64,000 bases of DNA from an uncultured Halobacteria archaeon (GCA_963768575.1 CAVYIJ010000001.1:9106-73105); one strand, 5' to 3'; positions 41,258-60,715 are shown, numbered from the stretch's first letter. Notes: generated by a model not told the origin, from the sequence alone. Program-made: numbers and translations.

Positions 41258-42613
41258 ATGGCCGCGATAGTCAGGGAATGCAGACAGGCGATTGAGTTGC
41301 TGGCACTCCACCGCGCAAATCCCGCACGCTACCCGCATCTGTTGCAAAGCGTGGCGCTTGGCCGCCATGACATCCTGTTCGCCTGTCCCGGCGACAGCCT
41401 GGTACTGCAGCAGGATATCCTGCTGCAGCCTGATGGCAGGCGCGTACCGGATGGTGATTTTCTGGATGGACTGGATGCCTGGTGGCAGCGGTCCTCAACA
41501 AGGTCTGCCGACAGCAGCTTGCCGTTCAGCGGCGGCTGGTTCGTTTATCTCGGTTATGAACTGGCTGCCCAGATTGAACCAACCCTGCAGCTCGAATATA
41601 CAGACCCGTATCTGCCGGTTGCTTTCGCAACCCGTTTCGCCACCGCTGTTGTCCACGATCGTGACAGCGACACTGTATTTATCGCCGGTGAACCGGGTAC
41701 CGAAGACGATATAGCCGTTATCGAGGCGGATATTGCCAGGCTGTCAGAAACAGGCGCACCGGTAAAACAGACTGTGCGCGCCACCCGTATTGCAGAGCAG
41801 CCTGACAGCGACTACCTGCAGGCGGTTGCACGTATCAAGGACTATATCGTTGAAGGTGATGTGTTCCAGGTCAACCTGTCCAGGGAGTGGAATATCCGGC
41901 TTGCGGACCGGGCTGACGCGGCTGCACTGTACAGCAATCTGTGCTGGCACAACCCGGCGCCGTTCAGCGGCCTCGCGAACTGGCAGGACGCGGCCATAAT
42001 CAGTTCATCGCCCGAACGGCTGGTCAGCGTGCGGGCGGGTATTGTCGAGACGCGGCCCATTGCAGGCACGCGCCCGAGGAGCAACACGCTTGCGCGTGAT
42101 GAGGAATTTTCGGCGGAATTGATGTCGCATCCCAAGGAACGTGCCGAGCACATCATGTTGATCGACCTCGAGCGCAACGACCTCGGGCGATTGTGCGTGC
42201 CGGGCAGTATCGAGGTGAACGAGTTCATGAAGCTCGAGTCCTATGCGCACGTGCACCACATCGTTTCCAACGTGCGCGGGCGGTTGCGGGAATCGATGAC
42301 ACCGGGTGCGGTACTCCGCGCGGTATTTCCGGGTGGTACCATTACCGGGTGCCCAAAGGTGCGTTGCATGGAAATTATCGCCGAACTGGAACAGGCGGCG
42401 CGCGGGGCCTATACCGGTTCCATGGGATATCTCAATTGTGACGGCAGTATGGATATGAATATCCTGATACGCACCATGGTCAGTCAGGGCGACAGGCTGG
42501 TGCTGCGTGCAGGTGCCGGTATCGTCGCCGACTCGGTGGCGGATGCGGAACTGGAAGAGACACGCGCCAAGGCGCGCGGCTTGTTAAGGTCGCTCGGGAT
42601 CGAGAGCGCATGA
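41258..42613 (+). CDS. pabB: Aminodeoxychorismate synthase component I (chorismate-binding enzyme, PabB-like)
   Basis: 451 aa; chorismate-binding C-terminal region PGGTITGCPK, SMGY; stop overlaps pabC start. Confidence 0.75.
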   Translation: MAAIVRECRQAIELLALHRANPARYPHLLQSVALGRHDILFACPGDSLVLQQDILLQPDGRRVPDGDFLDGLDAWWQRSSTRSADSSLPFSGGWFVYLGYELAAQIEPTLQLEYTDPYLPVAFATRFATAVVHDRDSDTVFIAGEPGTEDDIAVIEADIARLSETGAPVKQTVRATRIAEQPDSDYLQAVARIKDYIVEGDVFQVNLSREWNIRLADRADAAALYSNLCWHNPAPFSGLANWQDAAIISSSPERLVSVRAGIVETRPIAGTRPRSNTLARDEEFSAELMSHPKERAEHIMLIDLERNDLGRLCVPGSIEVNEFMKLESYAHVHHIVSNVRGRLRESMTPGAVLRAVFPGGTITGCPKVRCMEIIAELEQAARGAYTGSMGYLNCDGSMDMNILIRTMVSQGDRLVLRAGAGIVADSVADAELEETRAKARGLLRSLGIESA

Positions 42614-43465
42614 GCAGTCAGGCGCTGAAGGTCCTTGTGAACGGGCGCGCAACGGATTGTGTGCCGGGCACGGACCGCGGCCTGCTGTTCGGCGATGGCG
42701 TATTTGAAACGATCGCCCTTGCGGACGGTAAACCGCGTTACTGGGGCAGGCACATGGCACGCCTGCAAACAGGCTGCCACCGGCTAGGCATCGCGCAGGC
42801 CGACGAACAGCAGCTGCTACAGGACGTACATTCACTGGTGCGTGATGTGGAGAAAAGTGCGCGGCATGTCGTCAAGATTATCATCACGCGCGGACCGGGC
42901 GCTCGTGGTTACCGCCCGGACCCGGCTGCAAAGCCGACCCGTATCGTGCAATTGCATCCATGGCCCGGTTTACCAGGCGGGCGAGGAGGGCGTCCGCGCA
43001 ACGCTATGTTCGCTGCGTCTCGGTCATAACCCCTTGCTGGCCGGCATCAAGCACCTCAACCGGCTGGAGCAGGTCATGGCTCGCTCGGAGTGGGATAATG
43101 CGGATATTCGCGAGGGCCTGTTGCTGGACCAGGCCGGGCATATTATTGAAGGGACCATGAGCAACCTGTTTCTCGTTTTCAAAGGCGACCTGGTGACGCC
43201 GGACCTGTCGCGCTGTGGCGTGGCCGGCATTATGCGTGACATTGTGCTGCATGTCGCAGAGCAACAGGGCCTGTCGGTGAGTGTGCGCGACGTCAGCAAG
43301 GCTGAATTGTTTCAGGCCGATGAATTGTTCGTATGTAACAGCCTCATTGGCATCTGGCCGGTTGTATCACTGGACAGTAACCGCTATCCGCGAGGGCCGG
43401 TAACGACCGGGCTGCAATCGTTACTGGTTGATCATGACGATAACAGTCATAGCTGGCGATCATGA
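42610..43465 (+). pseudogene. pabC: Aminodeoxychorismate lyase (class IV aminotransferase fold) interrupted by a +1 frameshift near 42961-42972
   Basis: Frame 1 reads ...KIIITRGPGARGYRPDPAAKPTRIVQLHPWP then terminates. Frame 2 resumes ...VYQAGEEGVRATLCSLRLGHNPLLAGIKHLNRLEQV... through to the C-terminus. The switch is at TGGCCCGGTTTAC. Confidence 0.7.
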
Positions 43466-45162: not shown

Positions 45163-45352
45163 AACGGTGCGCTGGATGTTAAATCCACGACAGGGAATTA
45201 AATCGGCCCTCTATACGTCTTAGACAGGAGGGAGTGCAGATCAGGCATTTCCACAGCGACTGTGTGATTTTGATAATCCCCGGACGCGGCTAACGATCAT
45301 CTCTGTGTATAGAGATTCGGGATGGTTAACTTCTTTTTTCAGGAGGACAGAA

Positions 45353-45832
45353 ATGAAAACAATGAAATTGTGGGTGTCGCTGCTGGCCGCTGTTGCCTTG
45401 CTGACCGGCATGAATGCAATGGCGGGCGACCGGTACGGGAAACAGAAAGTGGTTTACCATATCAACTATGACGACCCGAATGCCCAGGCTGGCGCATTGA
45501 GGAATATCCAGAACCATATCAATGCAGTCGGCGCAGAGAACCTGGACCTGAAGGTGGTCATGCACGGCAAGGGGCTGACCATGTTGCTGACACCGGATGC
45601 TGCCGAGCGTACCAAGCTCAAGAAGGGCAATGCGACCGATGAGATACAGGCAAAAATAACCGGTCTCAAGGACCAGGGTGTCGGTTTTGAGGTCTGTTCA
45701 AATACACTGAAGGGAAAGAAAGTCGACTACATGCACGATCTGTACGACGTGGATGATGCCGATATCGTACCCAGCGGGGTCGCCGAGGTTGCGCGTCTGC
45801 AGGCAATGGGCTATGCGTACATCAAGCCCTGA
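45353..45832 (+). CDS. Secreted DsrE/DsrF/YchN-like (sulfur-relay fold) protein
   Basis: AGGAGG 6 nt before ATG 45353; signal peptide MKTMKLWVSLLAAVALLTGMNAMA; KVVYHINYDDP...VVMHGKGLTMLL...FEVCSNTL. Confidence 0.65.
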   Translation: MKTMKLWVSLLAAVALLTGMNAMAGDRYGKQKVVYHINYDDPNAQAGALRNIQNHINAVGAENLDLKVVMHGKGLTMLLTPDAAERTKLKKGNATDEIQAKITGLKDQGVGFEVCSNTLKGKKVDYMHDLYDVDDADIVPSGVAEVARLQAMGYAYIKP

Positions 45833-45850
45833 GCAAACATGCAGAGCATA

Positions 45851-45880
45851 AAAAAACCGGCCAGTCGGCCGGTTTTTTTT
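45851..45880. terminator. Bidirectional rho-independent terminator
   Basis: AAAAAA-CCGGCC-AGTC-GGCCGG-TTTTTTTT between convergent genes. Confidence 0.8.
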
Positions 45881-45903
45881 AGTCCTGTATCGCTCAGACT
45901 CGA

Positions 45904-46266
45904 ATATACACCCAGCCCTGCTGCATGCGGTCGACAATTTCCTCGAGTGCGCCGGGTATGACACGGGCCTCCGGCAGCAGGTGAACGTCGATGCCGCGCA
46001 AATGCAGCTTCTCGATCGTGCGGCTGCAGGCCAGGAAGCTGATGTTGTTGAACTGTTGTGCCAGGCGCTTGATGCGATCCGGGTAAGGCGACGTATCGGC
46101 ACGCAGCAGTGCGAGTCCATCCGCGTTGGCGACGACTTCCAGCTGTACCTGCTCCGGGTGGTCTTTATAGCTGCCGAGCAGCTCCTCGGCATCAGACAGC
46201 GCCTGGTCAAGGCGCTGTTCCTCGGCGCTGCTGATATGGATGACGACCCGTTTCAGTTCCGGCCTG
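45904..46266 (-). pseudogene. DsrE/YchN-like domain ORF lacking a canonical start. It probably was the periplasmic C-terminal domain of the adjacent anti-sigma factor and is now separated by a 1-nt frameshift near 46264-46276.
   Basis: Translation reads ...ELKRVVIHISSAEEQRLD...VQLEVVANADGLALL...ISFLACSRTIEKL...VYIRV*. No ATG/GTG/TTG start gives a product of 60 aa or more. It overlaps the anti-sigma stop (46207) by 60 nt in a different frame. The paralogous gene 47223-48063 has exactly this fused architecture. Confidence 0.5.
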
Positions 46267-46623
46267 ATTGCCGCCGTATTCGTCCAGTACGCTACTGCCT
46301 GATGATGGCGTGTCTGCCTTGTGCGACTGCAGCGATGTGCCGGTCAGGGTGCCGAGCGCGAAGATCAGTACGGCCGCGGCAGCCCTGGCCGGGGAGCGTG
46401 CCCACCAGCCGTGATTCCAGCGTAACTGTTGGGGAACTGGCTGCTCGATCTCGCGATAGGCCAGGCGCAGGGAGTCCTTGATCTGCAGCAGTTCGCAAAC
46501 GCGGCAGGCCAGTTCGTCATCCTGGCGCACGGCTTCCATGATCTCGGTGCGTTCGGCGACGTCGATTTCGTCATCGACAAATGCCTGCAGTTGCTCGTCG
46601 GAATAGCTGTCGCGGGTGCTCAT
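46207..46623 (-). CDS. Membrane-anchored anti-sigma factor (N-terminal anti-sigma domain, one TM, short periplasmic tail as currently framed)
   Basis: EQLQAFVDDEIDVAERTEIMEAV...CRVCELL; TM AAAVLIFALGTLTG; start overlaps the upstream ECF sigma stop. Confidence 0.7.
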   Translation of the reverse strand: MSTRDSYSDEQLQAFVDDEIDVAERTEIMEAVRQDDELACRVCELLQIKDSLRLAYREIEQPVPQQLRWNHGWWARSPARAAAAVLIFALGTLTGTSLQSHKADTPSSGSSVLDEYGGNQAGTETGRHPYQQRRGTAP

Positions 46624-47192
46624 TTGATTCTCCGTAATTTGGCGCGTACCAGGTCATGGCGCGGATCGAATTCCGCCAGTGCTGTTTTCAGCGCCTTTCG
46701 GGCGCGACAGATGCGGCTCATGACTGTACCGATCGGTATATCGAGGATCTCGGCGATTTCCGCATAGGAAAAGCCGGCCAGGTCGACCAGCGTGATGACC
46801 TGGCGCTGACCGTCCGGCAGTTGTGCGATCATTTGCCGCACCCGGTCAACGATGTCCTGGCGTTCGTTGCCATCCTCTGTCCATGGCTGACTTTCCGCGG
46901 GCAGGTTATCGATGTCGGCCATGTTGCGGTTGCTGCGCAGGTGATCGTACCAGCAGTTTGCGAGAATGCGTGTCAGCCAGGACTTGATGGCCTTGGTATT
47001 GTGCAACTGCTTGGCATTACGCAACGCCTTGACCATCGTGTCCTGCACCAGGTCATCGGCCAGTGCCGGCTGGTGACACCAGGAATAGGCCAGCTGGTAC
47101 AGCATTTGACGTCGTTGTTCCAGCTCGTGGCGGATTAATCGTGTGTTTTTGAACATCAGCGCAGCCCGTGGTGAATTTAACAGTATAATCAT
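46620..47192 (-). CDS. ECF (RpoE-like) RNA polymerase sigma factor
   Basis: Region 2 LVQDTMVKALRN, region 4 SYAEIAEILDIPIGTVMSRICRAR; AAGGAAAG 7 nt before ATG 47192. Confidence 0.85.
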   Translation of the reverse strand: MIILLNSPRAALMFKNTRLIRHELEQRRQMLYQLAYSWCHQPALADDLVQDTMVKALRNAKQLHNTKAIKSWLTRILANCWYDHLRSNRNMADIDNLPAESQPWTEDGNERQDIVDRVRQMIAQLPDGQRQVITLVDLAGFSYAEIAEILDIPIGTVMSRICRARKALKTALAEFDPRHDLVRAKLRRIK

Positions 47193-47222
47193 AACTATAA
47201 CTTACTTTCCTTATTGATGTCT

Positions 47223-48063
47223 TTAATCAGGACGGTATGTATGCTGCCTTTTATAAGACGGTATGCAGGCGGAATTTATTCCCGCGGCGGCGGAGGCAAT
47301 TCGGCTGCGACTGGAGGTGGACCAGGCCTCGGGCAGGGATTCGACCTTGATGTACTTCCAGTTCCCGCTCTGCAAGCGGTTGACGATGTGGTCAAAGGCA
47401 GTGGAGTCGGTGCTGACGCCCTGAATGATGGCGGGTTCGATGCCTTTCTTGCGGAGCATGCTGATGGCATTGGCGCAGCCAATGAAATGCACATTGTCGT
47501 ATTTCGCGAGCATCTCGACCATCTGCTGTTTGAGTGGAGAGACATCCTCGCGCATGATGTCCAGGCCGCTGGCGTGTGCGACCACGTCGATCTGATACCC
47601 CTGCGACTGGTGTTCCTGCAGGAATTTTTCAGCATAGGTAATGGCGGCGGTAAATTGCTGCGGGTTTGACTCGCTGATGTGCAGAATCACGTTGTTCTTG
47701 TCTGACTGCAGCTGACCGGACGAGGCGAGTAACTGGCCGGTGACGCCCGGTTGTCCCTGAAAGTACATGTGGCCCAGCATGCCGGCGCCGAAACTGATGG
47801 CCAGTGCAGCGATCGAGGCGGCCAGCCTGGGCGAGAACGGGAGCCAGCGCCGGCGTTTCTGTTTTGTCCGGCTGGACGGGGGGGAGGCGTCGCCGAAGCC
47901 CAGCTTCATCAGGTCCCGGGAACGACGCAGGCGATAGATGCGCTCGACGCAGTTCGGGATCGGTTTCCATGGCCTGGATGATTGCCTCACGATTGCCGGC
48001 ATCCACTTCGCCGTCAACGAACGCGCCCAGGATCTGATCGTTAAAATTGTTTGTGTCTTTCAT
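47223..48063 (-). pseudogene. Anti-sigma factor with periplasmic DsrE/YchN-like C-terminal domain (fusion), interrupted by a 1-nt frameshift near 47941-47955
   Basis: Frame A reads MKDTNNFNDQILGAFVDGEVDAGNREAIIQAMETDPEL... and parallels the 46623 anti-sigma N-terminus. Frame B continues ...CVERIYRLRRSRDLMKLGF...TM...KNNVILHISESNPQQF...HFIGCANAI..., a DsrE-like domain. The switch is at GAACTGCGTCGAGCG. Confidence 0.6.
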
Positions 48064-48068
48064 AATCT

Positions 48069-48614
48069 TTACTTCACCAGATAAACAGGGTCTTTGCGGG
48101 CCGGTGCAACATTTGACTGGTTTTCCATCCGCGCCAGAAGGTGCTTGCGTGCCCGGTGCAAACGACTCATGACAGTACCTATCGGTATTTCAAGTGCCAT
48201 TGCAACTTCGCAGTAGGACATCTCCTCAAGGTTGACCAGCGAAATTACCTGTCGTTCAATGACCGGCAGTGTCGCAACGGCCTGGCGTACCCGCTTTACA
48301 ATATCCGACTGTTCACAGTCCTCGACCGGTCCCGTTGCCTCGCTGGGCAGTTGTTCATCCAGCTCCACATGGTTTTTCTTGCTGCGCAAATAACTGTTCC
48401 ACTGATTATTCAGGATACTGTACAACCATGCGAATAATCGTTTCTCATCCCGTAATTGGGCTCGTTTGGCAATGCCGGTGGACAGGGTTTCCTGCACCAG
48501 GTCATCGGCCAGCATCTCATCGCCGCACCAGGCGAGCGCCACCCGATACAAACGGTCGCGACTGTCCACGATCCGGCAAGTCAATGACTTCGCCGGACAA
48601 TAGGGTATTTTCAT
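48069..48614 (-). CDS. ECF sigma factor, paralog of 46620-47192
   Basis: AGGAGAG 6 nt before ATG 48614 (MKIPYCPAKSL...); region 4 SYCEVAMALEIPIGTVMSRLHRAR. Confidence 0.85.
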   Translation of the reverse strand: MKIPYCPAKSLTCRIVDSRDRLYRVALAWCGDEMLADDLVQETLSTGIAKRAQLRDEKRLFAWLYSILNNQWNSYLRSKKNHVELDEQLPSEATGPVEDCEQSDIVKRVRQAVATLPVIERQVISLVNLEEMSYCEVAMALEIPIGTVMSRLHRARKHLLARMENQSNVAPARKDPVYLVK

Positions 48615-49103
48615 GACGCTCTCCTGTAATAGATGCTGCAAGCAGCCTGTTTATTCGCTTTATCAATCATTATTGTATGGACTGTCTCAGTATAACCACT
48701 GTGAATGCGATAATCCTTGTATTTTGATGTTCGGTATTTGTTATTTGTTGATCATAATAAAAGTACTGGCCGAATTGCCTGTTTCCCGGCCGGATGGAGT
48801 CCGGGGACGGTTTAATGGCCTGTTTCCCGTCTGATGGTTACCACACAAATACCGGAACTCGCTGCTTTCCACGCGTAAAGAGCTACTTGGTTGGCGTTCG
48901 CTGTGGAGCATCATCACTAAAATCGAATATCCTTATGTGCTGAAATTTATTTCTTCATGGTCTGACAAAGACTGAGAAATAAATGAATAAGTACACGGTG
49001 AGTTACCTCTACAAGTATACGGCGCACTCCGCGTGGAGGGTTTCCGTGTATGGAAATGAATTTCGAAATTTATTATTCACAATAAAATTAGGGGTGAGAT
49101 CTC

Positions 49104-50706
49104 ATGAAGAAATGTAATTTAACTGTAACCGCGCTTGCGGCGAGCATGGCCATGCTCGCCGGGAGCGCCATCGCGCACTCCAGGCTCAACAGGGCCCGGT
49201 ACACCGACCTGTATCGAGTCCAACATCATGATGGCCGATGCCGAGAACGCGCCGTTTTCGAACGACCCGGGGCTCGGCCGTGTGCTGGAGATGAATACCA
49301 CCACCGGTGAACGGGGTATCACGGTCGAAAGCCCGTTTTCAGACCCGCCTTGCGACTCCCCTCTGTCCTGACCATGTGACCTGCCCGGGTCCCTTCAAAC
49401 CCACGGGGAACGTATCCGGTGGCGAGGACGGTCATGCCTACCTGGTCAGTGCCGCCCAGCATGCGCTGATCGAGCACCATCGTGACGGCACGCCCATCAA
49501 GACGAGTCCCGCTCTGGCCGACATCGCCGTCCCCGGACGGTGGCAATTTCGGTTATGTGCCACGCCTGCTCGGTAACGGCTTCATGCCGAACGGCAACAT
49601 CGCGCAGACGGTCTGTGACGCCAACTTCTTCAATGCGGCGAATTCTGATTCGGTGAGCCCGAACGGCAACACCCATGTCAGCGGCAACGCTTCCAACCTG
49701 TTCTTCCCGCCGGTGTATGGCACCACCGACACGGGCCGCCAATGGCCGTGTTGTCATCGTCGACCAGGACACGATGGAGCTCGTCGACGAGTACAGCAAG
49801 CCCACCAAGGGACCCTATGCCAATGACCCGCGCTGGAGTTGCCCGGCAGGTGTCCTCTTCACCTCCGAGGGAATGTACGTGAGTATGTTCCACGGCGATG
49901 CGGTGTTCGTCATCGACTGGCGGGCTGGTATGGACAACGAGAAGAGTGAAGGGGTCGGTTCCAACAGCACGGCGGGCTTCAAACTCGGCAAGAAGAAGAA
50001 CGAGGCCAAGGTCATTCGCGTGATCGACCTGCAGGACACCACCGATAACGGTATCTCGGATGCTCCGGATGCACCCCTTTACAATTCCGGGAACCGCCGT
50101 GACAACCTGCGTGCCATCCGGATGTCCGAGGACGGCACCCTGTACGGTACCCGCCGCAGCCGTTCCCAGGAGTGTAATGAGAGGTGATGCCGGTTGTAAC
50201 CCGGGTGTGTTTCGCCAACATATCTTCATCGTGCACGAAGGTGAAAATAACAACTCCGGCGATACCATCGCCCTGGATCCGGGTGTGAACATCATCGCCG
50301 GTATCACCGTCAACCGCATGTCCGCACCGGGTTGCAAATTTGTCTCGGGAGGTTTGGATCCGACCACGGTGACCGGTGACATTTGTGACGTAGAGACCCT
50401 CTATGTCGGCGTCGTCCGCCGGTAACGCCGGTTGTGTCGCTACTGGTCCTGTAGGCGGCCAATCCTTGCTTCAAACCTGGCGGTACCTTGTATGAGTACC
50501 GCATTGATGCGGCGTCTCTCGACGGTGCGACCGGTCTATGTACAGGTAATCCGCTCGTTCCGGCCGAGAACGTGGGCTGTGCCATGCCGATTGCGCAGTT
50601 TGATTTCGTCAAGCAATCAGATAGCGGCGGAACGCTGCCAGATGGCACCATCGAGACGCTCGACCCGCGGATGGTGATGACGATCCACGAGGCGTTCGTT
50701 CAGTAG
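49104..50706 (+). pseudogene. Secreted protein gene of unknown function (possibly beta-propeller-like) fragmented by at least 5 frameshifts
   Basis: Signal peptide MKKCNLTVTALAASMAMLAGSAIA after GGGGTGAG. The coding signal continues through consecutive overlapping ORFs in alternating frames (49135, 49307, 49482, 49675, 50060, 50488) up to ...MVMTIHEAFVQ*. It has repeated V-I/F-V-I-D blade-like motifs. Confidence 0.5.
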
Positions 50707-50770
50707 AATGAACCCACGATCAGCCGGAGCCTTTAGTAAACCGGCTGAAACGTGGTAGTAAGCAGTGATA

Positions 50771-50806
50771 CCCGGTGGGCATGTATTGCCCGCCGGGTTT
50801 TTTTTG
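50771..50806 (+). terminator. Rho-independent terminator
   Basis: CCCGGTGGGC-ATGTATT-GCCCGCCGGG-TTTTTTTTT. Confidence 0.75.
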
Positions 50807-51003
50807 TACGGCGCATGAACATGCACCAATAAAAACGTACCGATCATGGTTTGCGCTACGTAGTCTTGCAGGGCGTGTACTTGTGCCCGGAACGGGTATA
50901 AATACCTCTTGACTATATTGTGCGCCGAATTGAGCTGGATGGGTTGCCAAAGAGATCAAACCCACGCTAGTATTTTAAAACCTGGTAATTGGAGTTTTAC
51001 CCA

Positions 51004-51747
51004 ATGAAGTACCTGATTCCTTTTTTATTTCTACTCACGCTGTGCGGCTGTGACAATCAAATCCGCGTGGGTCACAAGACAGCAACAAGGTGGCTCCTGA
51101 GAAGACCGAGAGCTATCTCGATAAACCCGTCAAGGGGCAGGTAAACCAGCGCGGCCTGTACAAGTTGCTACGCAGTGGCGGGGTGGTTGACGATCCCAAC
51201 ACCAGTACCGGCAAGGCGGTCGCGAACCCGGTGATTCAACAGGTCAAGTCGACGGAGCGAATCCCCCTGATCAAGGGCGCCCAGATGTACCTGCAGTACC
51301 GGATCTGGCCTCTCCCGGACCAGCCGGTCCTATATCGACCTCAGGCGGGTGTTGAAGCACCCCGAAATGACCCTGCCCGATGGGTCGGTCTCCACCGGCT
51401 CCGACTCTCCGATGAAGGGCAAGGTCAGTGTCAACCAGGCCATCGGCTATACCGGGTACGGCTTCGACGAGGACTACGAACTGGTCGAGGGTGACTGGAT
51501 CTTTGAGATCTGGTACCAGGATAAAAAGCTGATTGAACAGAAATTCACGACCTACTGGCCGGATGAAGAAGAGGTAGCCGAATTGAAGCAGATGCTGGCG
51601 CCACAAAAGAGCCTGGTGAAAATGGCTTCACCGGACGATAAAGGGGATCCCAGATTAAATTGGCCCAGGGTAACGATAGATATTGGAGAAGACCCGGTCA
51701 CGGAACCAACAGTGTCATCGAGCAATTCTTCAGACAACTCTGATTAA
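51004..51747 (+). pseudogene. Lipoprotein gene of unknown function with two frameshifts (about 51085 and about 51335)
   Basis: MKYLIPFLFLLTLCGC lipobox; the body continues in frame 0 (VAPEKTESYLDKP...) and then in frame 1 (...GYTGYGFDEDYELVEGDWIFEIWYQDKKLIEQKF...). Confidence 0.5.
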
Positions 51748-52588
51748 TTTGTGCATTTTGTCATTGCGAGCGCAGTATAGCAATCTCATAAATCGTGAGG
51801 CATTCTCTAACAATCTATACAACAATCGTATGGGATTGCGGCGTAGCTTACGCTCCTCTCAATGACGGCCTGTACACACCGTGTCATCACAATCATTAAT
51901 ACCGTAGCGTGATGGTGCGAAAGCTTCGCGTCAGGTGACCCAGGAGTACCACCAGGAACAGCATCATCTCGAGCATCTCCAGGCTTTTCTCCAGAGATTT
52001 TGCAAAATTTAGAATTGCACAGGCTTCATTCCGCAGGTCGCTTCAAACCAGTCATACTCTTCAATGATGCCTTCTATGAAGTTCTTTTCTTACGGAAAAT
52101 GTGAAACAGAAAAAGGTCGCAAGAACGGCTAATTTCTCATTGCGGGGAGATAGCTCCGTCTAAAATATAGTACAGGATGTCAACAATGCTCGATAGTCTT
52201 TACAACTGGCTACTACTGGCTGATAAATATTTTTCTTTACAAGCAAGCCATGCATGCGAGATTTATATGTTCAACTATCAAGTAAATACCCTGGAAAGTG
52301 TTTATGATCTATTTGAATATATAACACCTGCTCTGATCTTCCGGCAGCGTGACTAAAACGCTTCTGTCTTAATATCTGCCGTCCGCGTGTGCCAGTCGGA
52401 GAATAAAACTACCCGTGCTGGACGTCTGCAAGATAGGTGAAAAACAGGTCCGTCAGCTTTGTATGACGCGAATTAGACAGTTCTCTTCGACTTGCCGCAA
52501 GCAACTACAACAATCGAGCGCAATATACCAAGTAGAAAGATTATGCATCTTGTATAAGAGACGGGTACATCAATTGGAGGAAGTAATA

Positions 52589-53309
52589 ATGAAACGATTA
52601 TCCAAATCTAAAAACAATTACCACGCTGATCGGGGGGCTTACGCTTTCAGGCGTTGTCTGCGCCGGCGCGGTTGTCATTAATGATGAAATGCCCAGAAGA
52701 GCGCCGGGCAGCACCAGCGGTAGTGGCGACACGGTTGAAGCCAACTGCCCGACCGATCCCAGTGGCAATGACTGGCAGGGTGCCACGGCTGAACTCATGG
52801 TCCGGCAGGTCGGCGGTGGCAGCACCGTGGATATCGACGTGAAGAATGCAGTGCCCAACACGGTGTTCACTGTCTGGATGCGTATGGCAAGGGCGGTGCC
52901 GGGTTCAATGACGATCGGCAGTCCCATGACCGGTGGTGGCGCGACGCCACTGGCTGCCGGGAACTGCCTGGATGGTGCTGCTTCAACTACCGCCTCCGGT
53001 TCCAGCCGGCAGGCAGCGCCAATCCGACCAACGGCTTCACCACGAATGCCAATGGCACAGGTCACTTCAGTATCGATCTGGATTTCCCGGTCGTTGGTGG
53101 CGCCTATCCATTCCAGAAGGCAAGCGACGCCGCTGGCAGGCCTGATCAATGCTGAAGCCTGGCTCCAGAATGTACCCACACCGATCGTCAACCCGGCAGA
53201 TCGCAATATCGGTGGACCGTTCCTGCTCCGCGTGATTTCGCACTGCACGGACCAGCAGGGTCATGGCCTGTCCCCGGGTGTACGTGAAGCCTGGTTCCAG
53301 TATCCGTGA
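52589..53309 (+). pseudogene. Secreted protein gene of unknown function with frameshifts (A-run 52610-52614 and about 2 more internally)
   Basis: GGAGGAAG 5 nt before ATG 52589. MKRLSKSK then a shifted frame gives a signal peptide ITTLIGGLTLSGVVCAGAVV. The middle part is protein-like only in a different frame (FNYRLRFQPAGSANPTNGFTTNANGTGHFSIDLDFPVVGG). Confidence 0.5.
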
Positions 53310-53765
53310 GTGGATTTGAGTTATTGTTAGCTAAGTAACAATAAAGTCGTTTGTAACAGCAAAGGGTGCTGCCTTGCAGGCAGCGCCCTTTTTATTACGG
53401 TTGTACAGGGCCGGGAGGGAAGTACTTGCGGCCGTGCGAAGCATGATAATAGCCATGCTGTTGGTCCGGAGCATTAAACCCGAATGAATCCGGTCGGCAA
53501 CAGATATTATTTATTAGGGTAAACCCTGAGTGAATTCGAGCTCATTCCCTGGTTATGTTATGCATCTCCTCGAAATGTTCATGTATTAATTCACAGCAGC
53601 AAGGCATCACACCGCTCAAATATCACATCGTTCATAAATTATTTGGAATAAATCGACCCTGCTTTCCATCTACTATAAGCGGCAAGACGACGGCCATAAG
53701 AATATCAGCCAATTATTATAGCTATTAACGGCTGGTGGGAGATTCAGCGTCGACAGGGGGGGGTA

Positions 53766-55204
53766 GTGGAGGCACCTAGAATATTGTGTGTCGATCTACG
53801 GCATGGCAGGGAGTCGCCGTGTGCGCAATATACACTGGGCAGTGCCTACCACACGGAAGTCGTCGATAACCATTGTGTTATTGATAGTTACATTGAAAGG
53901 TTTCAGCCCGGTATATTGTGTTTCGATTACGATCTGCCTGATCAAACGGGACTGATGGCGCTGGAGCAAACCCGTTCCCGGCATCCGATGGTTACCAATA
54001 CTGATGCTAACCACGGGATCACTCCGTGGAGTTGGCGATCTGGGCCCTGAGGTTACGCGTGTGGGACTACTTCACGAAGCCGGTGGGGATCGATGAGTTG
54101 GTCAATAGTATTGCCGGATTGCCTGAAATGAAACCAGGCACCTGCAAGCATGGAGGAGACTACTGGGCGATTCAGCCTCTTGATCTTCCAGAATCCCGCT
54201 CGTTCGGGACCACTATAAAGAAAATACCAACAGCGCTAGCGACGACCTATGTTCGGGAACACCTGGACAAGAAAATCAGCCTGGAAATCGTGTCCAAACT
54301 ATGCGGCATGAGCAAATCCCATTTCAGCCGGTCATTCAAGAACGACCACGGGATTACATTTCAGAATTATCTCGCCCAACAGAGGATAGATAGGGCATTA
54401 GCCCTGCTGAAAGATTCCGATATGCAAGTAACCCAGGTGGCCTTTGCAGTTGGATTCACTGAACTTTCCAACTTTACGCGGACATTTCAACGTCATATCG
54501 GCATGAGTCCTTCATATTATCGCAAGGCGATCACTTCCCGGCTATTACAGATAAAAGACCGAAGAAGCCAGTCTACGAAATTCCCGAAGGCAAATCCGAA
54601 CCCGGTACTTTCCGTTGGCCCGGATGGTTTGCCGGATTTTGTGAATCCTGCCGCGTCATATTTGCTTAAAGAGATCGGCCTGGAGAATGTTGAATACATC
54701 TTGCCAACCAATCACCGGGTGCTGGTAAAAACATCCCTGGATACCAACATGCCGATGAGTGAAGAACGCAGGATCGCGGGTCGGACCATTGTATGGTCGT
54801 ACTGCCCGATCGATGATAGTGAAACAGTTCACCTCTATGGCAATGATGTATCCGATTATGTTTCTGATAGCCCCGGTGTTGAAAGTATTTCCAGGGAAAG
54901 CACGAACCCGGTGCTTTCGCTGGAGCCGGACGGTGAGCCGCGATTTATGAATTCGGCAACATGCCAGTTACTTGAAGAATTGAAACTGGAAAATATCGAG
55001 GAAATTTTGCCTTCCAACCATACAAGCCTTTTGAAAGCCTGCCTGAAAACCAGCACGCCACTGGCTGAAGAGTGCAGAGCGGCAGGCAGAACAATAATCT
55101 GGTCGTATCATCCTGCCAACAGTAATGACGTGATTTATGTCTATGGGCAGGAAGTGTCCGGTTGCGCCGGCAAAAGTAGCAGCAACAAAGTTTCAGTCAT
55201 CTAG
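53766..55204 (+). pseudogene. Response-regulator-type transcription factor with the architecture REC - AraC/XylS HTH - two tandem PAS-like repeats; the REC domain is broken by two frameshifts within about 45 nt (53975-54020)
   Basis: REC reads ILCVDLRHG...ILCFDYDLPDQTGLMALEQTRSRHP (frame 0), then LPILMLTTGSLRG (frame 1), then SVELAIWALRLRVWDYFTKP (frame 2). AraC HTH: ISLEIVSKLCGMSKSHFSRSFK...VTQVAFAVGFTELSNFTRTFQR. The C-terminus has two ~100-aa repeats NPVLSxxPDGxPxFxNxA...AGRTIxWSY. Confidence 0.6.
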
Positions 55205-55743
55205 CCGATCCAGTGAACGGTCATTATCGGATTAATCATATGACAGTATCCATAGATTATTATTCCGCTCCTGTCTGTTCAATTTGAAGAATTCAGGACA
55301 GGAAGAAGCAGCCAGTGGTTCAAAGTGGCGATAATGGCTTAACGGTCGGGCTATACTCAGCGGAGATGTAGACAAGCCATAACTAGAGCGCAGCAATTCT
55401 GCGCCAGGAAGTAATATCAACAAAATAATCAATATATTTAGTTAGATGCAGATTAATTATCATGTTGTTTATAACAAATAAACAATCGTGGCGGTTACCG
55501 GGGGCAAATCAGTATCTGAATAATGAAGTAGCGTCGCTGTGCAATGACGGAATAAAAAGCAGGACAAAAGAGTCTTATTTTAATAACAAATATAACGAAC
55601 CGGGTGCCAGGGGTATAAAAAACACTTGCAGAGGCATGGTGAAAACCTGCGCCGGCGCGTCCTGTGCCACGCATATATTGTGCTGACCCATAGCAACAAC
55701 CCTCACATCAGGCGCATAACATGGCTGGAACGAAACGATAAAT

Positions 55744-58196
55744 GTGACGGTACGGTGGACAATTAATCTGCAATACCCGTTATCAATTCCGGCTCTGTGG
55801 TCGATACTGCTGCTGGTCATGGTCGTGCTCAAGCCGGCGCCATGTATGGCAGCAGATCCGGAGATGAAAATAGGCGTGCTTGCATTTCGTGGCGCACAGG
55901 CGGCCCGCGAAATGTGGCAACCCACGGCGGATTATCTCTCCAGCAGTATCTCAGGATACCACTTCAGGATTATTCCTCTGGACCTGCAAGGCATGCGCCA
56001 GGCAGCCCGGGAGCGCAGCATAGACTTTGTATTGACCAACCCCGGAAACTACGTAGACCTGGAAGCCCGCTATGGCGCCTCACGTCTTGCGACGTTGCGC
56101 AATTTTCGCCAGGGAAAGCCCTACACTGTATTTGGCGCCGTAATTTTCACGAGCGCCGGCCGTGCCGACATAAATACCTTGCGGGACCTGAAGGGAAAAT
56201 CGTTCATGGCTGTAGGCGAGAATGCCTTTGGTGGTTTCCAGATGGCCTGGCGGGAACTCGAGGAGGTGGGTGTCGATCCTTTCGGTGATTTCAGCCGTAT
56301 AGAATTCTCCGGTTTCCCGCAGGATAACATCGTGTATGCCGTAAGGGATGGAAAAGTGGATGCGGGAACTGTTCGCAGCGATACGCTTGCCCGCATGGCG
56401 CAGGAGGGAAAGATCGAACTTTCCGGTTTTCGCGTCCTTAACGAACGCAGCAGTCCGGGTTATCCCTTCTCTCTCAGTACCCGCATTTACCCGGAATGGC
56501 CCTTTGCCAGGTTGGGCCATACGTCCGAGGAACTGGGACAACTGGTAGCGATAGCGCTGTTGACGCTGCCGGCCGATAGCGCGGCGGCAATAGCGGGGAA
56601 GTCGGCGGGATGGACAATCCCGCTTGACTACGGACCGGTACACGATCTTTTCCGCACGCTGCAAATCGGTCCATACGAGACCATGGGCGAGGTCACACTC
56701 GCCAGGGTACTGGCTCAATATTGGCGCTGGTTATTGGCGGGCCTGGTTGTACTCATGGTCATGGGGCTGGTCATCACTTATGTGTTGCGTATCAATCGGC
56801 GGCTTGGCTTGTCGAAACGGGTGCTGCAAAGGGAGGTGGCAGAACGCAAACAGGCCCAGACACAACTGGCGCGTCACCGGGACACACTGGAACAGGAGGT
56901 ACAGGCGCGCACGCAGGAATTACAGGAAGACATTCGAGCGCGCAAGCAAGCTGAGGAAACACTGCGCCGCAGTGAATCAGCCCTGCGCCGGTTGCATGAA
57001 ATAACGACGTCGGCTGATCTGGATTTCCAGGGTAAATTGCGTGAGCTTCTGGAAATGGGCTGCGAGCATTTTGAGTTGACGACCGGCCTGTTCTCCCGGA
57101 TCCACGAGAAAAGCTATGAGATCGTCGAGGTAGTTTCACCCGATGCGCGTTTTGTAAAGGGCGGACTAATGTCGTTAAAGGATACTTTTTGCCAGGTTGT
57201 TCTAGCCTCGCGGGGAACTGTTGCCATTAAGGATATTGGGCAATCGGCGTATCGGGATCTGCCGGTAGTTCAGCACATGGGGCTGGAAACCTATTTCGGT
57301 GCAGCGGTGCAGGTGGCCGGTGATATCTTCGGGACGCTGTGTTTTTTCAGCACTGATCGCCGCGAGACGCCGTTCTCATCAGTGGACAAGGATATCCTGC
57401 AACTCGTGGCCCAATGGATAGGCGAGGAAGTCGAGCGCCGGAATACCCAGGACCAGGCGCGCCGGCATCAGGATGCGCTGGCCCACGTATCGCGGCTTGG
57501 CGCCATGGGTCAAATGGCTTCGGCACTGGCGCATGAACTCAATCAACCGTTAACCGCGGTAGTTAACTATACCCGGGGATGTATTCGGCGACTGCAAACC
57601 CGTAGCGAAGATGCCGGGGCGCTGGTGGGGGCAATGGAGCAAGCGGTAGCCGAAGCCGAGCGGGCAGCGGAAATCATTCGCGGACTGCGCGAGTTCGTCC
57701 GCAAGGACGAGTCACAACGGGCGCTGATCGCAATCAATACAGCAGTTCACGAGGTAGTCAACATCGCCGAGGTCGAGGCCCGGCAGCAGGGAATAGCCCT
57801 GGATCTGGACCTGCAGGATTCCCTGCCTGGAATTGCGGAGATATGATCCAGATACAACAGGTCATCCTGAATCTTGTTCGCAACGGTCTGGAAGCCATGG
57901 CCAATGAAAGCCTGGAGGACAAATGCCTGTATATAAGTACGGCAATGTCGGACGATGAGACGGTTGAAGTGGTCGTCAGGGACACGGGATGCGGATTGCC
58001 TGCAGTGCCCGTAGAAGATGTGTTCCATCCATTTTACACCACCAAAAAGGGGGGCATGGGCATGGGGCTGTCCATCAGTCGATCCATCATCGAGGCGCAT
58101 GGCGGCCGGTTGCATGCCGAGCCAGCCAGGGGTGGCGGCAGTATCTTTCTTTTTACCCTGCCGGCTCTCATGGAGAAACTTGAATATGGGTCGTGA
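55744..58196 (+). pseudogene. Sensor histidine kinase with periplasmic PhnD/SsuA-like solute-binding domain (TtrS-like) plus GAF, HisKA and HATPase_c. A 1-nt deletion in a G-run (57835-57846) splits off the HATPase_c domain.
   Basis: Periplasmic KIGVLAFRGAQAAREMWQPTADYL...; TM; coiled coil; GAF; H-box HVSRLGAMGQMASALAHELNQPL. The frame stops at ...LPGIAEI* and the N-box IQIQQVILNLVRNGLEAM plus GMGMGLSI continue in the next frame. Confidence 0.65.
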
Positions 58197-58812
58197 ACCT
58201 ACCGTGTATGTGGTGGACGATGACCAGGCAGTGGGAGATTCACTCAGCTGGTTGATCGGGTCCATCAATCTCAATGTAGAGATGCACGGGTCGGCCCGGT
58301 CATTTCTCGAGGCCTGTGATCCGGCGCATTCCGGATGCCTGGTACTGGATGTAAGAATGCCTGGCATGAGCGGCCTCGACCTGCAAGAGGAACTGGTCAA
58401 CCATGGCATTACCCTGCCAGTCATTATTATCACCGGTCATGCGGACGTACCCATGGCAATTCGGGCAATGAAAGCAGGTGCATTCGATTTCGTGGAGAAG
58501 CCTTTCAATGACCAGGTATTGCTGGAACGTATTCAGGAAGCCATCAAGCGCGACGCCGACGCCCGCCAGCATGCCGCGCAATGGTTGGCCATAGACTCCC
58601 GCATTGCAACATTGACCAGGCGCGAACGGGAAGTCATGGATTGCGTGGTGGCGGGTAAATCCAACAGGCAGATTGCTGATGAGCTGGGGGTGAGTATGAA
58701 AACCGTGGAAGCCCATCGTGCCAACATGATGGTGAAGATGTCAGCGGACAGCCTGTCTAATCTCGTGGAAATGGTCGTGCTGTGGCGCGAAAACAGGAAA
58801 AGCCGCGCCTGA
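58186..58812 (+). CDS. FixJ/NarL(LuxR)-family response regulator (TtrR-like), cognate to the upstream kinase
   Basis: MGREPTVYVVDDDQAVGDSL...LDVRMPGMSGLDL...; C-terminal LuxR HTH REREVMDCVVAGKSNRQIADELGVSMKTVEAHRANMMVKM; start overlaps the kinase stop by 11 nt. Confidence 0.85.
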   Translation: MGREPTVYVVDDDQAVGDSLSWLIGSINLNVEMHGSARSFLEACDPAHSGCLVLDVRMPGMSGLDLQEELVNHGITLPVIIITGHADVPMAIRAMKAGAFDFVEKPFNDQVLLERIQEAIKRDADARQHAAQWLAIDSRIATLTRREREVMDCVVAGKSNRQIADELGVSMKTVEAHRANMMVKMSADSLSNLVEMVVLWRENRKSRA

Positions 58813-59210: not shown

Positions 59211-60715
59211 TTGACCAAGCTAAAAACTGCCGTTTATCAGGAAGCTGCTGGTTGCAGCTTCGGCGGCGACACTGGCCATGTCTTCCGCAGCATTCGCCAA
59301 TGACTCAGATAGTGATAGCCTGGTCGGGCTTGCCATCACGTGATCGTGATCGTGATCGTGATCGTGATCGCACGTCGTACACTCTGCAAGGACCGTGCGC
59401 GTTCCTGCCCGCAGACCGGGCAACCGAGTTTCACGGTAATCCCGACCGGTCCAGGTTGAACCTGGGTATGGCGGGTAACCAGTGGGTGGTGTTCGAGAAA
59501 GCCATGCAGGAGTTTAATGTTTACATCGGCAAGGGTGACGGCAGTGAGCCGGCATACCGACCCAACGATGCGAACCGCTTTACACTGGCCGATCTGAATG
59601 TTAAGGCAAACCGCTACTTTATCGAGCTGATTCCGCCCGGCCAGATCCGCGCGCAAATCAAATCCGGCTGCATGTTGCTCGGCAATGATGAAGACCGCAA
59701 CTTCCTGCCCGGAAATTTCCAGGTGGATTTCGACGTGTTCGCATCTACCAACTACAACCTGATGCAGGACCTGGCGAATAACGGTTTCATCGACGAGGCC
59801 GTCCCCTATATCAGTAACCGCCTCGACCTGATGGTCGCTGTCGGCAATCCCAAAGGCATTGGCAACACTGTGCATACCGGTAATGCCGACTTCGATACCC
59901 AGTTCGACATCATCATGGACCTGTTGTCCGGCGATGTGATTGCATCATCGCTTGATCACATCAACGAAGGTATCCATAACGCCGCCAACAATTACATGAA
60001 GAACGCGCATACCTGGGTCAAGGCCAATGATCCCGGGACACTCATTCCCATGACGTACACCTATGCAGATGGCAGCGTAGATACCACTTCCAAGACGGCT
60101 TCAGACTGGATCCAGGCCGCCCTGGCAAAGGTTGCCACACCGATGGCGGGGTCACCGGGTGAACTGCGTTTGATCAGTGGGGATGCAGGTGAGAATCATA
60201 CCTCGCATGACCTGGTTGACCAGGGCTGCGGTACTGCGGGTGACCTGCAGTTCTGCGAATATGCCGTCCTGAACAAGGCCAATACCCATGAGTCCCGCGT
60301 ACACCACGTGGAAACTCCAGGCGGCATCGTGGGCGACCCCGGTTTTGTGCCTGTGGATGTAGGTTATGTCTGGATCACCGAGCTTGCCTTCCAGTTGAAT
60401 AACGGTAATTTCGCTGTGCAGGGCATGGTGGGTGACCAGAATATCGCTGACCTGGGAATTCCCCGTCCGGCCGGTTCAACGAATGTCAACAATGACATTA
60501 CCTACTCGCTGGCCTTACTGGCAACTTCCAAACACAAGAAACGTGGACGCCAGTTCATTGATTTCCTCCGCAGCCCGCAGGGACAGCAAGTGTATACGGA
60601 TGGTGGCTTCACCGGCCTGACGTCAACCCAGCTGGATGAAGGCAGATGTTATGCCAAACCTGTAGCCGGTGTTTCTGTTGCCACAATCCGGAACGGCGAT
60701 CGTTCGTGTCGATGA
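59211..60715 (+). pseudogene. Secreted protein of unknown function; the signal-peptide region is out of frame with the body (at least 2 frameshifts near 59240 and 59335-59375)
   Basis: GAGGAGG at 59185. A signal-peptide-like KLLVAASAATLAMSSAAFANDSDSDS sits in one frame and terminates in the hexanucleotide repeat. The 470-aa body (59252 frame) is in another frame. Confidence 0.5.
59340..59372 (+). repeat. Hexanucleotide microsatellite (GATCGT) x5.5 encoding (DR)n at the signal-peptide / mature-protein junction
   Basis: CGTGATCGTGATCGTGATCGTGATCGTGATCGC; translates to RDRDRDRDRDR in the long ORF frame and to TGA-containing codons in the signal-peptide frame. Confidence 0.85.

Follow-up and report, generated by a model that had tools for sequence, protein, structure and literature searches.

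Two paralogous ECF sigma/anti-sigma modules lie head-to-tail

We analysed a 64,000-nt stretch of DNA (the window) deposited under an uncultured Halobacteria archaeon (GCA_963768575.1, CAVYIJ010000001.1:9106-73105). All coordinates are those of the window, and the six-frame reading covered positions 45200-48900. Two modules lie head-to-tail on the minus strand of this region, each consisting of a gene for an extracytoplasmic function (ECF) sigma factor followed by a gene for a putative membrane-bound anti-sigma factor with a predicted DsrE-like C-terminal domain. A gene for a secreted, stand-alone DsrE-like protein is convergent with them. This arrangement had been proposed from a sequence-only reading of the window; all of its elements are present, and each of the motifs that it named (FLACSRT, FIGCANAI and FEVCSNT) was found. 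The features of the two modules are as follows.

48069-48614, minus strand: sigma2, ECF sigma factor, 181 aa (Sigma70_r2 E=3e-10, Sigma70_r4_2 E=6.5e-14)
47223-48063, minus strand: anti-sigma2, putative N-terminal anti-sigma domain, one predicted transmembrane (TM) helix and predicted periplasmic DsrE-like domain; 1-nt insertion
46620-47156, minus strand: sigma1, ECF sigma factor, 178 aa (Sigma70_r2 E=1e-15, Sigma70_r4_2 E=8e-21)
45904-46623, minus strand: anti-sigma1, putative N-terminal anti-sigma domain, predicted TM helix (about residues 76-97) and predicted periplasmic DsrE-like domain; 1-nt insertion
45353-45832, plus strand: stand-alone secreted DsrE-like (COG1416) gene, 159 aa (Pfam DsrE E=3.9e-10)
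45850-45880, bidirectional: intrinsic terminator, A8-CCGGCC-GACT-GGCCGG-T7, from the sequence and a terminator scan

Sigma and anti-sigma genes are joined by a 4-nt overlap or a 5-nt gap, the overlap being the ATGA shared by the sigma1 stop and the anti-sigma1 start (46623-46620). The terminator lies between the minus-strand genes and the convergent secreted DsrE-like gene, whose product has a signal peptide ending in AMA, directly before GD.

Both sigma factors match Sigma70_r2 and Sigma70_r4_2 above threshold and contain only these sigma domains. Their scores against the TIGR02937 sigma70-ECF model are 85.9 (sigma2) and 92.5 bits (cut-off 42.9), they are 49% identical to each other, and the nearest solved structures to both are ordinary ECF sigmas (SigH, SigE, RpoE). 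As expected of ECF sigma factors, each is a sigma2/sigma4-only protein with an adjoining anti-sigma gene, and the predicted promoter upstream of sigma1 has AAC-type -35 and CGT-type -10 elements. The best NCBIfam matches, PRK12511 and sigma_PG0214, both fall under their cut-offs. The sigma1 gene itself was correctly recognized by the sequence-only reading, with a start at 47192 that we have revised: the reading frame is open as far back as the ATG at that position, and because relatives are 178 aa long we place the start at 47156.

The anti-sigma factors have a predicted DsrE-fold sensor domain

Within the window, both anti-sigma genes are interrupted. Anti-sigma1 is encoded in one frame from 46623 to approximately 46285 and in another frame from there to the stop at 45904. 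The Logan contig L001, which is identical at 1190 of 1193 positions (99.7%), is without one G at 46285/46284 and codes for an intact anti-sigma1 of 242 aa (P0001). Module 1 therefore once encoded an anti-sigma/DsrE-like fusion, as had been surmised from sequence alone. For anti-sigma2, the frame changes at 47947, where the window has an extra T compared to L002 (94% identical DNA). The usual anti-sigma2 stop, TAG in L002, is TGG in the window (47324-47322), so that the frame runs 34 codons longer, to 47223; intact homologues are about 245 aa (e.g. P0121, 93% identical to the repaired protein). Comparison with L001 and L002 thus bears out the single-nucleotide frameshift that had been noted in each fusion gene, and both are insertions of one base confined to the window sequence. 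Programmed frameshifting was considered and rejected because the extra bases are absent from the relatives L001, L002 and L086. Once repaired, anti-sigma1 and anti-sigma2 are 29% identical over their full length (E=3e-31).

Based on a family profile, the predicted fold and similarity to the secreted paralogue, the C-terminal domain of the anti-sigmas is a member of the DsrE superfamily, in the MTH1491/COG1416 branch. A 29-member family profile searched against the PDB matched 1L1S (MTH1491) at E=7e-16 over 109 of 113 residues and 2PD2 at E=4e-6. AlphaFold modelled P0001, the intact twin of anti-sigma1, with confidence in the N-terminal helices and in residues 121-242 (C-domain pLDDT >88). Foldseek with the modelled C-domain returned 1L1S (TM 0.89, rmsd 1.9 A, 35% identity), followed by 2PD2, the DsrE-like structures 3PNX and 2QS7, and DsrEFH (2HY5). 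The fused domain also matches the secreted paralogue by BLASTP (E=9e-6), and the 159-aa secreted protein itself passes the Pfam DsrE model (PF02635; 40.4 bits, cut-off 22.7). Many members of the family are labelled ‘intracellular sulfur oxidation DsrE/DsrF family protein’ by JGI. The claim that these domains are DsrE-like is thus supported and narrowed to one branch. Among the Pfam families that the sequence-only reading had put forward for checking, Sigma70_r2/r4 and, for the secreted protein, DsrE were confirmed; PF02635 did not reach its cut-off on the fused domains, and zf-HC2 matched only below threshold.

Four residues of the C-terminal domain are nearly or fully invariant among 376 full-length family members: Cys199 (375), His129 (369), and Gly169 and Trp237 (both 376). 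Both window anti-sigmas retain all four. Cys199 lies at a strand-to-helix junction and corresponds in the alignment to the Cys of MTH1491.

Scanned against Pfam and NCBIfam, the repaired anti-sigmas had no match above threshold. Of 24 family members, 10 match RseA_N (best E=0.0035) and 6 match zf-HC2 (best E=0.0013), in every case under the gathering cut-offs, and the top PDB matches of the N-terminal domain are the N-domains of MucA and RseA, at E ~0.4. In the P0001 model this domain forms three helices (pLDDT ~88-90), followed by a hydrophobic segment and the confident alpha/beta C-domain, and one N-domain helix, L-x-A-F-V-D-x-E-L, contains an invariant Asp. Of the 71 loci in which a long match located the anti-sigma gene, 70 have an ECF sigma gene immediately upstream of it. 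Since the weak matches are consistent and are accompanied by three predicted helices, the invariant Asp and the upstream sigma gene, we assign this part of the protein as a putative anti-sigma domain, mainly on its context and its predicted helices. It does not have the zinc motif of zinc-binding anti-sigma (ZAS) proteins, H-x3-C-x2-C: module 1 has D-ELA-C-RV-C, without the His, and module 2 has R-ERI-Y-RL-R, without either Cys.

Positive charges precede the hydrophobic segment, and the stand-alone paralogues have signal peptides. We therefore infer a single-pass, N-in topology for the anti-sigmas that would place the DsrE-like domain in the periplasm.

The fusion is widespread in sulfur-oxidizing bacteria

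Anti-sigma/DsrE fusions, for which the sequence-only reading had suggested a database search, are abundant and intact elsewhere. Word-seeded searches with anti-sigma1 recovered over 200 homologues, and those with anti-sigma2 over 130, most of them intact, full-length and approximately 240 aa. An exhaustive profile search of 1.84 billion cluster representatives gave 519 matches at E<=1e-30 and 1021 at E<=1e-10; at least 519 clusters at 50% identity contain intact fusions. We found no paper describing an anti-sigma factor with a DsrE-like domain, and neither DsrE nor sulfur comes up in the main texts of the paper reclassifying ECF sigmas or of that on class I anti-sigmas. The family is large and is present in databases under the names ‘hypothetical’ or ‘DsrE family protein’; it thus lacks a description but is not rare.

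A taxon survey, in which a 10-sequence alignment was searched against species-representative genomes, showed that the hosts are dominated by sulfur-oxidizing Gamma- and Betaproteobacteria. They include Ectothiorhodospiraceae, Thiogranum, Thiohalophilus, Thiohalomonas, Thiohalobacter, Sedimenticola hydrogenitrophicus (isolates), Halothiobacillus (including a complete genome), Sulfuriferula, Sulfuritalea, Thiobacillus, Methyloversatilis, Woeseiaceae and Arenicellales. The tandem arrangement of the window is found with every gene intact in the metagenome contig L086, where the order is a 558-aa protein, then sigma2, anti-sigma2, sigma1 and anti-sigma1, then DsrE, tmk, yceG, pabC, pabB, fabF and acpP.

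To describe the gene neighbourhood, open reading frames (ORFs) of 80 loci were clustered, 46 of which have enough flanking sequence. Of the 46, 31 have a secreted stand-alone DsrE-like gene close by, divergent from the sigma gene in 25 and downstream in 7; orthologues at the position equivalent to that in the window are present in L003, L005, L006, L009-L011, L072 and L086. Other recurrent neighbours are a Porin_O_P-type porin (17 loci), a SoxB/SoxB-like phosphoesterase cluster (12 loci), soxY with soxZ (9 loci), TauE (7 loci), TlpA-like redoxins, a YeeE-like Sulf_transp gene and DsbC/DsbD. The porin is absent from the window by tblastn, and no dsr or tus genes were found among the neighbours of these loci.

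Related ECF sigmas also adjoin anti-sigmas in three loci from Alphaproteobacteria (L078, L080 and L082). There, the anti-sigma N-domain is 33-38% identical to that of the family and the C-terminal domain is not DsrE-like, which suggests that a single lineage of sigma/anti-sigma pairs has exchanged its sensor domain. By comparison, sigmas from Alphaproteobacteria that have the promoter motif described below together with non-DsrE anti-sigmas show only 32-41% identity. A GGAATAA-N-CGTC promoter is upstream of the sigma gene in L078 and L082; no match was found in L080.

A shared promoter motif predicts the regulon

We searched for an ECF-type motif, GGAATAAA-N16-CGTC(tta), and found 134 matches in 0.98 Mb, compared to 4.1 ± 2.1 expected. 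With the window included, 59 of 135 matches are just upstream of sigma genes and 44 precede genes of ORF cluster 1. Stand-alone DsrE-like genes and anti-sigma ORFs fell together in this cluster; short stand-alone DsrE-like ORFs account for nearly all of the 44. The motif also precedes soxY (L050), SoxB-like genes (L005, L009), a YeeE-like gene (L015) and DsbC-like genes. In the window, the only exact GGAATAAA-N16-CGTC match is upstream of sigma1. The motif before the secreted DsrE-like gene has one change in the -35 element, and the element is kept in nine of nine relatives. Scores below are from a position weight matrix (PWM).

47257-47282, minus strand: predicted ECF-type promoter of the sigma1 operon, GGAATAAATTCCGCCTGCATACCGTC (top PWM score, 28.4)
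45194-45219, plus strand: predicted ECF-type promoter of the secreted DsrE-like gene, GGAATTAAATCGGCCCTCTATACGTC (PWM score 21.4)

Sigma1 is predicted to transcribe its own operon and the gene for the secreted DsrE-like paralogue. Targets of sigma1-type factors in other genomes would include the Porin_O_P-type porin, soxYZ, SoxB-like phosphoesterases and the YeeE-like transporter.

The leader of the secreted DsrE-like gene contains a further conserved element, GGCATTTCCAnnGCGnCTGTGTGATTTTGA (45243-45277), which is also present in L086 and in part in L003. A sigma70-like match (TTTCCA-N18-GATAAT) overlaps it, as does a small hairpin with a T-run behind it. Two other PWM matches in the window, at 55543 and 53639, were set aside since the near-invariant CGTC is altered to GAGTC and CCATC. 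A weak match of this kind, with CCATC replacing CGTC, is at 53645-53670, upstream of a gene for an AraC-type regulator (54026-55204) that contains two copies of a C-terminal repeat of approximately 100 aa (…NPVLS..PDG.P.F.N.A….LLKE.GLENVE.ILP.NH…).

The sulfur-oxidizing hosts, the invariant Cys, and a promoter shared by DsrE-like, soxY, SoxB-like and YeeE-like genes all support a role in sulfur sensing. Our preferred reading, which we hold with moderate confidence, is that the two paralogous ECF sigma/anti-sigma modules, with their predicted periplasmic DsrE-like sensors, act as a sulfur-responsive switch.

The same conserved residues could instead belong to a sensor of metals or of some other ligand, with His129 and Cys199 binding Cu, Zn or an unrelated compound and the link to sulfur being coincidental. 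Both residues are nearly invariant, and COG1416 has no proven function. However, there are no metal-homeostasis genes among the conserved neighbours, and both the distribution of the family and its predicted targets are related to sulfur, making a sensor of this type highly improbable.

Another alternative is feedback from the partner protein. DsrE-fold proteins form trimers or hexamers, and the anti-sigma domain would bind the secreted DsrE-like paralogue, or take sulfur from it, and thereby report the amount or the loading of this carrier instead of a free small molecule. Sensor domain and main predicted target are indeed paralogues, their genes are neighbours in 31 of 46 loci, and the closest structural relatives of the sensor are oligomeric DsrE-fold proteins. 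It is difficult to reconcile such feedback with the 15 of 46 loci that have no stand-alone paralogue nearby, or with the module-2-type loci L083 and L084, where none is adjacent, and we consider it improbable.

Module 2 is associated with a distinct divergent operon

Systems of the module 2 type (L083, L084, L086 and L087) are accompanied by a distinct divergent operon encoding a Cys-rich secreted protein of 520-570 aa and a DUF3859 lipoprotein, sometimes with a porin as well. Both module-2-type promoters have a variant of the motif, GAATAA[AT]-N14-C[ACG]TCTA, and the window keeps a copy of each (48657-48632 and 48984-49009). This variant is upstream of module-2-type sigma genes in L083, L084 and L086, and GAATAA[AT]-N14-C[CA]TC[TC]A is at the position of the second promoter in the same three loci. 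The corresponding features of the window are listed below.

48632-48657, minus strand: candidate sigma2 promoter, CGAATAAA-N14-GCATCTA, a variant of the family motif (PWM score 15.3)
48984-49009, plus strand: candidate promoter of the divergent beta-propeller gene, TGAATAAG-N14-CCTCTAC
49104-50706, plus strand: secreted Cys-rich beta-propeller gene, predicted module 2 target, approximately 530-555 aa, no Pfam family; at least 6 frame changes
51004-51747, plus strand: gene for a DUF3859 lipoprotein, second in the divergent operon; 2 frame changes

The 555-aa protein has 374 homologues, all annotated ‘hypothetical’, including Thiogranum longum DFR30_1891. It is modelled as a beta-propeller, and Foldseek with this model found generic beta-propellers only, with no specific structural relative. 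Sigma2 is predicted to transcribe its own operon and the divergent beta-propeller/DUF3859 operon by means of a slightly different -10 element. In L087, a kinase and a regulator of the types encoded at 55744-58812 in the window are near the module-2-like system, as are two SoxB-like phosphoesterases.

A Cys-rich secreted protein as predicted target would also fit an envelope thiol-disulfide sensor. In such a system the invariant Cys would form an intermolecular or mixed disulfide in response to an oxidizing periplasm or thiol-reactive compounds, and the regulon would restore periplasmic thiol homeostasis instead of answering to sulfur substrates. The presence of a single invariant Cys in the sensor domain agrees with this alternative, as do DsbC-like, DsbD and TlpA-like redoxins among the motif-preceded or neighbouring genes. 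Yet the family is concentrated in sulfur oxidizers, its commonest predicted target is a DsrE-like paralogue, soxYZ, SoxB-like and YeeE-like genes are predicted targets in several genomes, and the motif matches for DsbD have a weaker -35 element (GGAATACC) and are located 246 nt upstream of the gene. We therefore give little credence to thiol-disulfide stress as the signal.

A model for sulfur-responsive release of the sigma factors

Under the preferred reading of a sulfur-responsive switch, the cytoplasmic N-terminal helical domain of the anti-sigma would hold the sigma factor. A reduced sulfur species in the periplasm, which may be sulfane sulfur, polysulfide, thiosulfate or sulfur delivered by a carrier, would react with Cys199. 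The anti-sigma would then be inactivated, through either a change of conformation or regulated proteolysis of the RseA/MucA kind, and the freed sigma would transcribe from GGAATAAA-N16-CGTC promoters. More tentatively, and with somewhat less than even odds in our estimation, this may be a widespread and hitherto unrecognized route by which sulfur-oxidizing Gamma- and Betaproteobacteria sense reduced sulfur in the periplasm: the DsrE-like domain of the anti-sigma, a paralogue of a periplasmic DsrE-like sulfur carrier, would be persulfidated, directly or through a relay from that carrier or from SoxYZ. The ECF sigma that is then released would induce the carrier and an anion porin, joined in some lineages by soxYZ, SoxB-like and YeeE-like genes.

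Several observations weigh against this model. For the anti-sigma domain, all matches to RseA_N, zf-HC2 and the MucA and RseA structures are below threshold. For the sensor domain, the Pfam DsrE model scores 14.3 bits in module 1 and gives no match in module 2 (cut-off 22.7), and we know of no demonstrated function for the COG1416 branch of the superfamily. About a third of the loci (15 of 46) have no stand-alone DsrE-like gene nearby. Several of the motif-preceded genes encode thiol-disulfide enzymes (DsbC, DsbD), which a redox signal would fit equally well. Finally, both sensors are broken in the window and the modules may be non-functional here.

The regulation of lithotrophic sulfur oxidation is poorly understood, and the only characterized regulators known to us are SoxR-type repressors and a few two-component systems. 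If the model is correct, hundreds of sulfur-oxidizer lineages would have a new regulatory route, open to direct testing, in which an ECF switch has a periplasmic sensor of the DsrE fold and is tied to DsrE-like, porin and Sox genes through a shared promoter. It would provide the first functional handle on periplasmic COG1416 DsrE-like proteins, and a first function for that branch, and the tight promoter motif would allow regulon prediction in uncultured sulfur oxidizers.

Comparison with known systems

The closest mechanistic parallels are E. coli sigmaE-RseA and P. aeruginosa AlgU-MucA. Shared features, as predicted for the window, are co-transcription of sigma and anti-sigma, an autoregulated operon, and a single-pass N-in anti-sigma in which a short helical domain on the cytoplasmic side binds the sigma factor and the periplasmic part acts as sensor; the best sequence matches of the N-terminal domain, although sub-threshold, are also to RseA_N and to MucA/RseA in the PDB. 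In contrast to those proteins, the window anti-sigmas have a periplasmic domain of the unrelated DsrE-type fold, there is no rseB/mucB-like gene, the promoter motif is GGAATAAA-N16-CGTC, and proteolytic release is only presumed. The logic of an ECF sigma with a single-pass anti-sigma is standard for the RseA/MucA type, and it is the sensor domain that differs from both the RseA/MucA type and the ECF26 type discussed next.

In physiology, the nearest systems are the ECF26-type pairs, S. meliloti RpoE1 and RpoE4 and Starkeya novella RpoE, the latter encoded beside sorAB, which respond to sulfite or thiosulfate (PMC3511301). In these pairs an ECF sigma and membrane anti-sigma respond to an inorganic sulfur signal and control periplasmic sulfur-oxidation enzymes (PMC3511301). 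As predicted for the modules described here, they are autoregulated, have small local regulons and occur as paralogous pairs with overlapping promoter specificity, and an anti-sigma frameshift has been reported in a laboratory strain (PMC3511301). They differ in that their anti-sigmas have a COG5662-type rather than a DsrE-like C-terminal domain and their hosts are Alphaproteobacteria (PMC3511301). We established no link between the window sigmas and ECF26; the alphaproteobacterial relatives with non-DsrE anti-sigmas yielded no informative family match.

With respect to the sensor domain, MTH1491 and ST0148 (PDB 1L1S and 2PD2) share the fold, and their His (HI motif) and Cys (aC motif) align with those of the window family. 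Unlike the predicted periplasmic, anti-sigma-fused domain, they are small stand-alone archaeal proteins with no signal sequence. DsrEFH/TusBCD share the DsrE-superfamily fold and a Cys that follows a beta-strand at the start of a helix; we take the Cys position of the family to be that of the persulfide-carrying Cys78 of DsrE/TusD. The similarity of DsrEFH to the window domain is a distant structural one (TM 0.54-0.58, 10-12% identity). Furthermore, DsrEFH/TusBCD are cytoplasmic heterohexamers encoded in dsr/tus operons that pass sulfur to DsrC or TusE, whereas the window domain follows a predicted TM helix in a predicted N-in protein and its paralogues have signal peptides.

A parallel for the stand-alone targets is found in the sox operon of Methylovirgula thiovorans HY1, which includes a gene for a periplasmic DsrE-like protein, MHY1_00068 (PMC9371685). 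We liken it to the secreted DsrE-like proteins described here from its description, as a secreted DsrE-like protein linked to Sox; no sigma/anti-sigma link has been reported for it (PMC9371685). The ‘membrane-bound DsrE-like’ protein of Methylovirgula was considered as a member of the anti-sigma family and rejected, as it is DsrE2A, which belongs to a different family (PMC9371685).

Frame breaks are not limited to the anti-sigma genes

In addition to the two anti-sigma insertions, at least 12 further frame breaks are present between 42.6 and 63 kb. In the beta-propeller gene, tblastn with the intact L083 and L084 proteins gave high-scoring segments in frames 1,2,3,1,2,3,1, and the frame changes (at least six) run in one direction. 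The aminodeoxychorismate lyase gene pabC (42610-43465) is in two frames with a break at approximately 42963; five relatives have a single 284-aa gene. A histidine kinase with a periplasmic Phosphonate-bd domain as well as GAF and HisKA domains (55744-57846) is separated from its HATPase_c domain (57843-58196) by a frame change, and a LuxR-type response regulator follows it in the region 55744-58812. Three successive ORFs in different frames at 61463-62986 are apparently fragments of one gene for a DHOR di-haem oxidoreductase; only the last matches the DHOR profile, at its C-terminal positions 418-499 of 499. Genes that are intact in the window include fabG, fabF, pabB, mltG, tmk, both sigma genes and the secreted DsrE-like gene.

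One explanation is that the genes are dead at this locus: both anti-sigmas and the module 2 targets would be pseudogenes, and the sigmas, whether constitutive or silent, would be unregulated in a decaying region. The 1-nt insertions in both anti-sigmas, the loss of the anti-sigma2 stop codon, and the frame changes in the beta-propeller gene (at least six) and the DUF3859 gene (two) are consistent with decay, as is the finding that breaks are more closely spaced across 45.9-51.7 kb than across the 37.7-45.2 kb housekeeping block. Loss of an anti-sigma by frameshift is known in S. meliloti 1021 (PMC3511301). However, pabC, the histidine kinase and the DHOR gene are also split, pointing to a general problem of sequence quality. 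In addition, anti-sigma1 is intact in the 99.7% identical contig, and the window itself retains undamaged copies of the two sigma genes, the DsrE-like gene and all predicted promoters. We therefore consider dead genes an unlikely explanation. As other genes of the window are also broken, the anti-sigma insertions are likelier to reflect assembly error or general decay than an event specific to this system, and for the window itself the two frameshifts are probably issues of sequence quality rather than biology.

The density of frame breaks is highest within 48-52 kb, which is part of a stretch (48001-56000) where G+C falls to 0.48-0.54, compared to 0.57-0.60 in the flanking housekeeping block. 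Two short repeats were also noted: a 9-mer repeat at 62953-62980, at the end of the DHOR fragment, and a perfect hexamer repeat, (CGTGAT)5.3, at 59339-59370, which encodes DRDRDR near the start of an ORF for a solute-binding protein (59252-60715).

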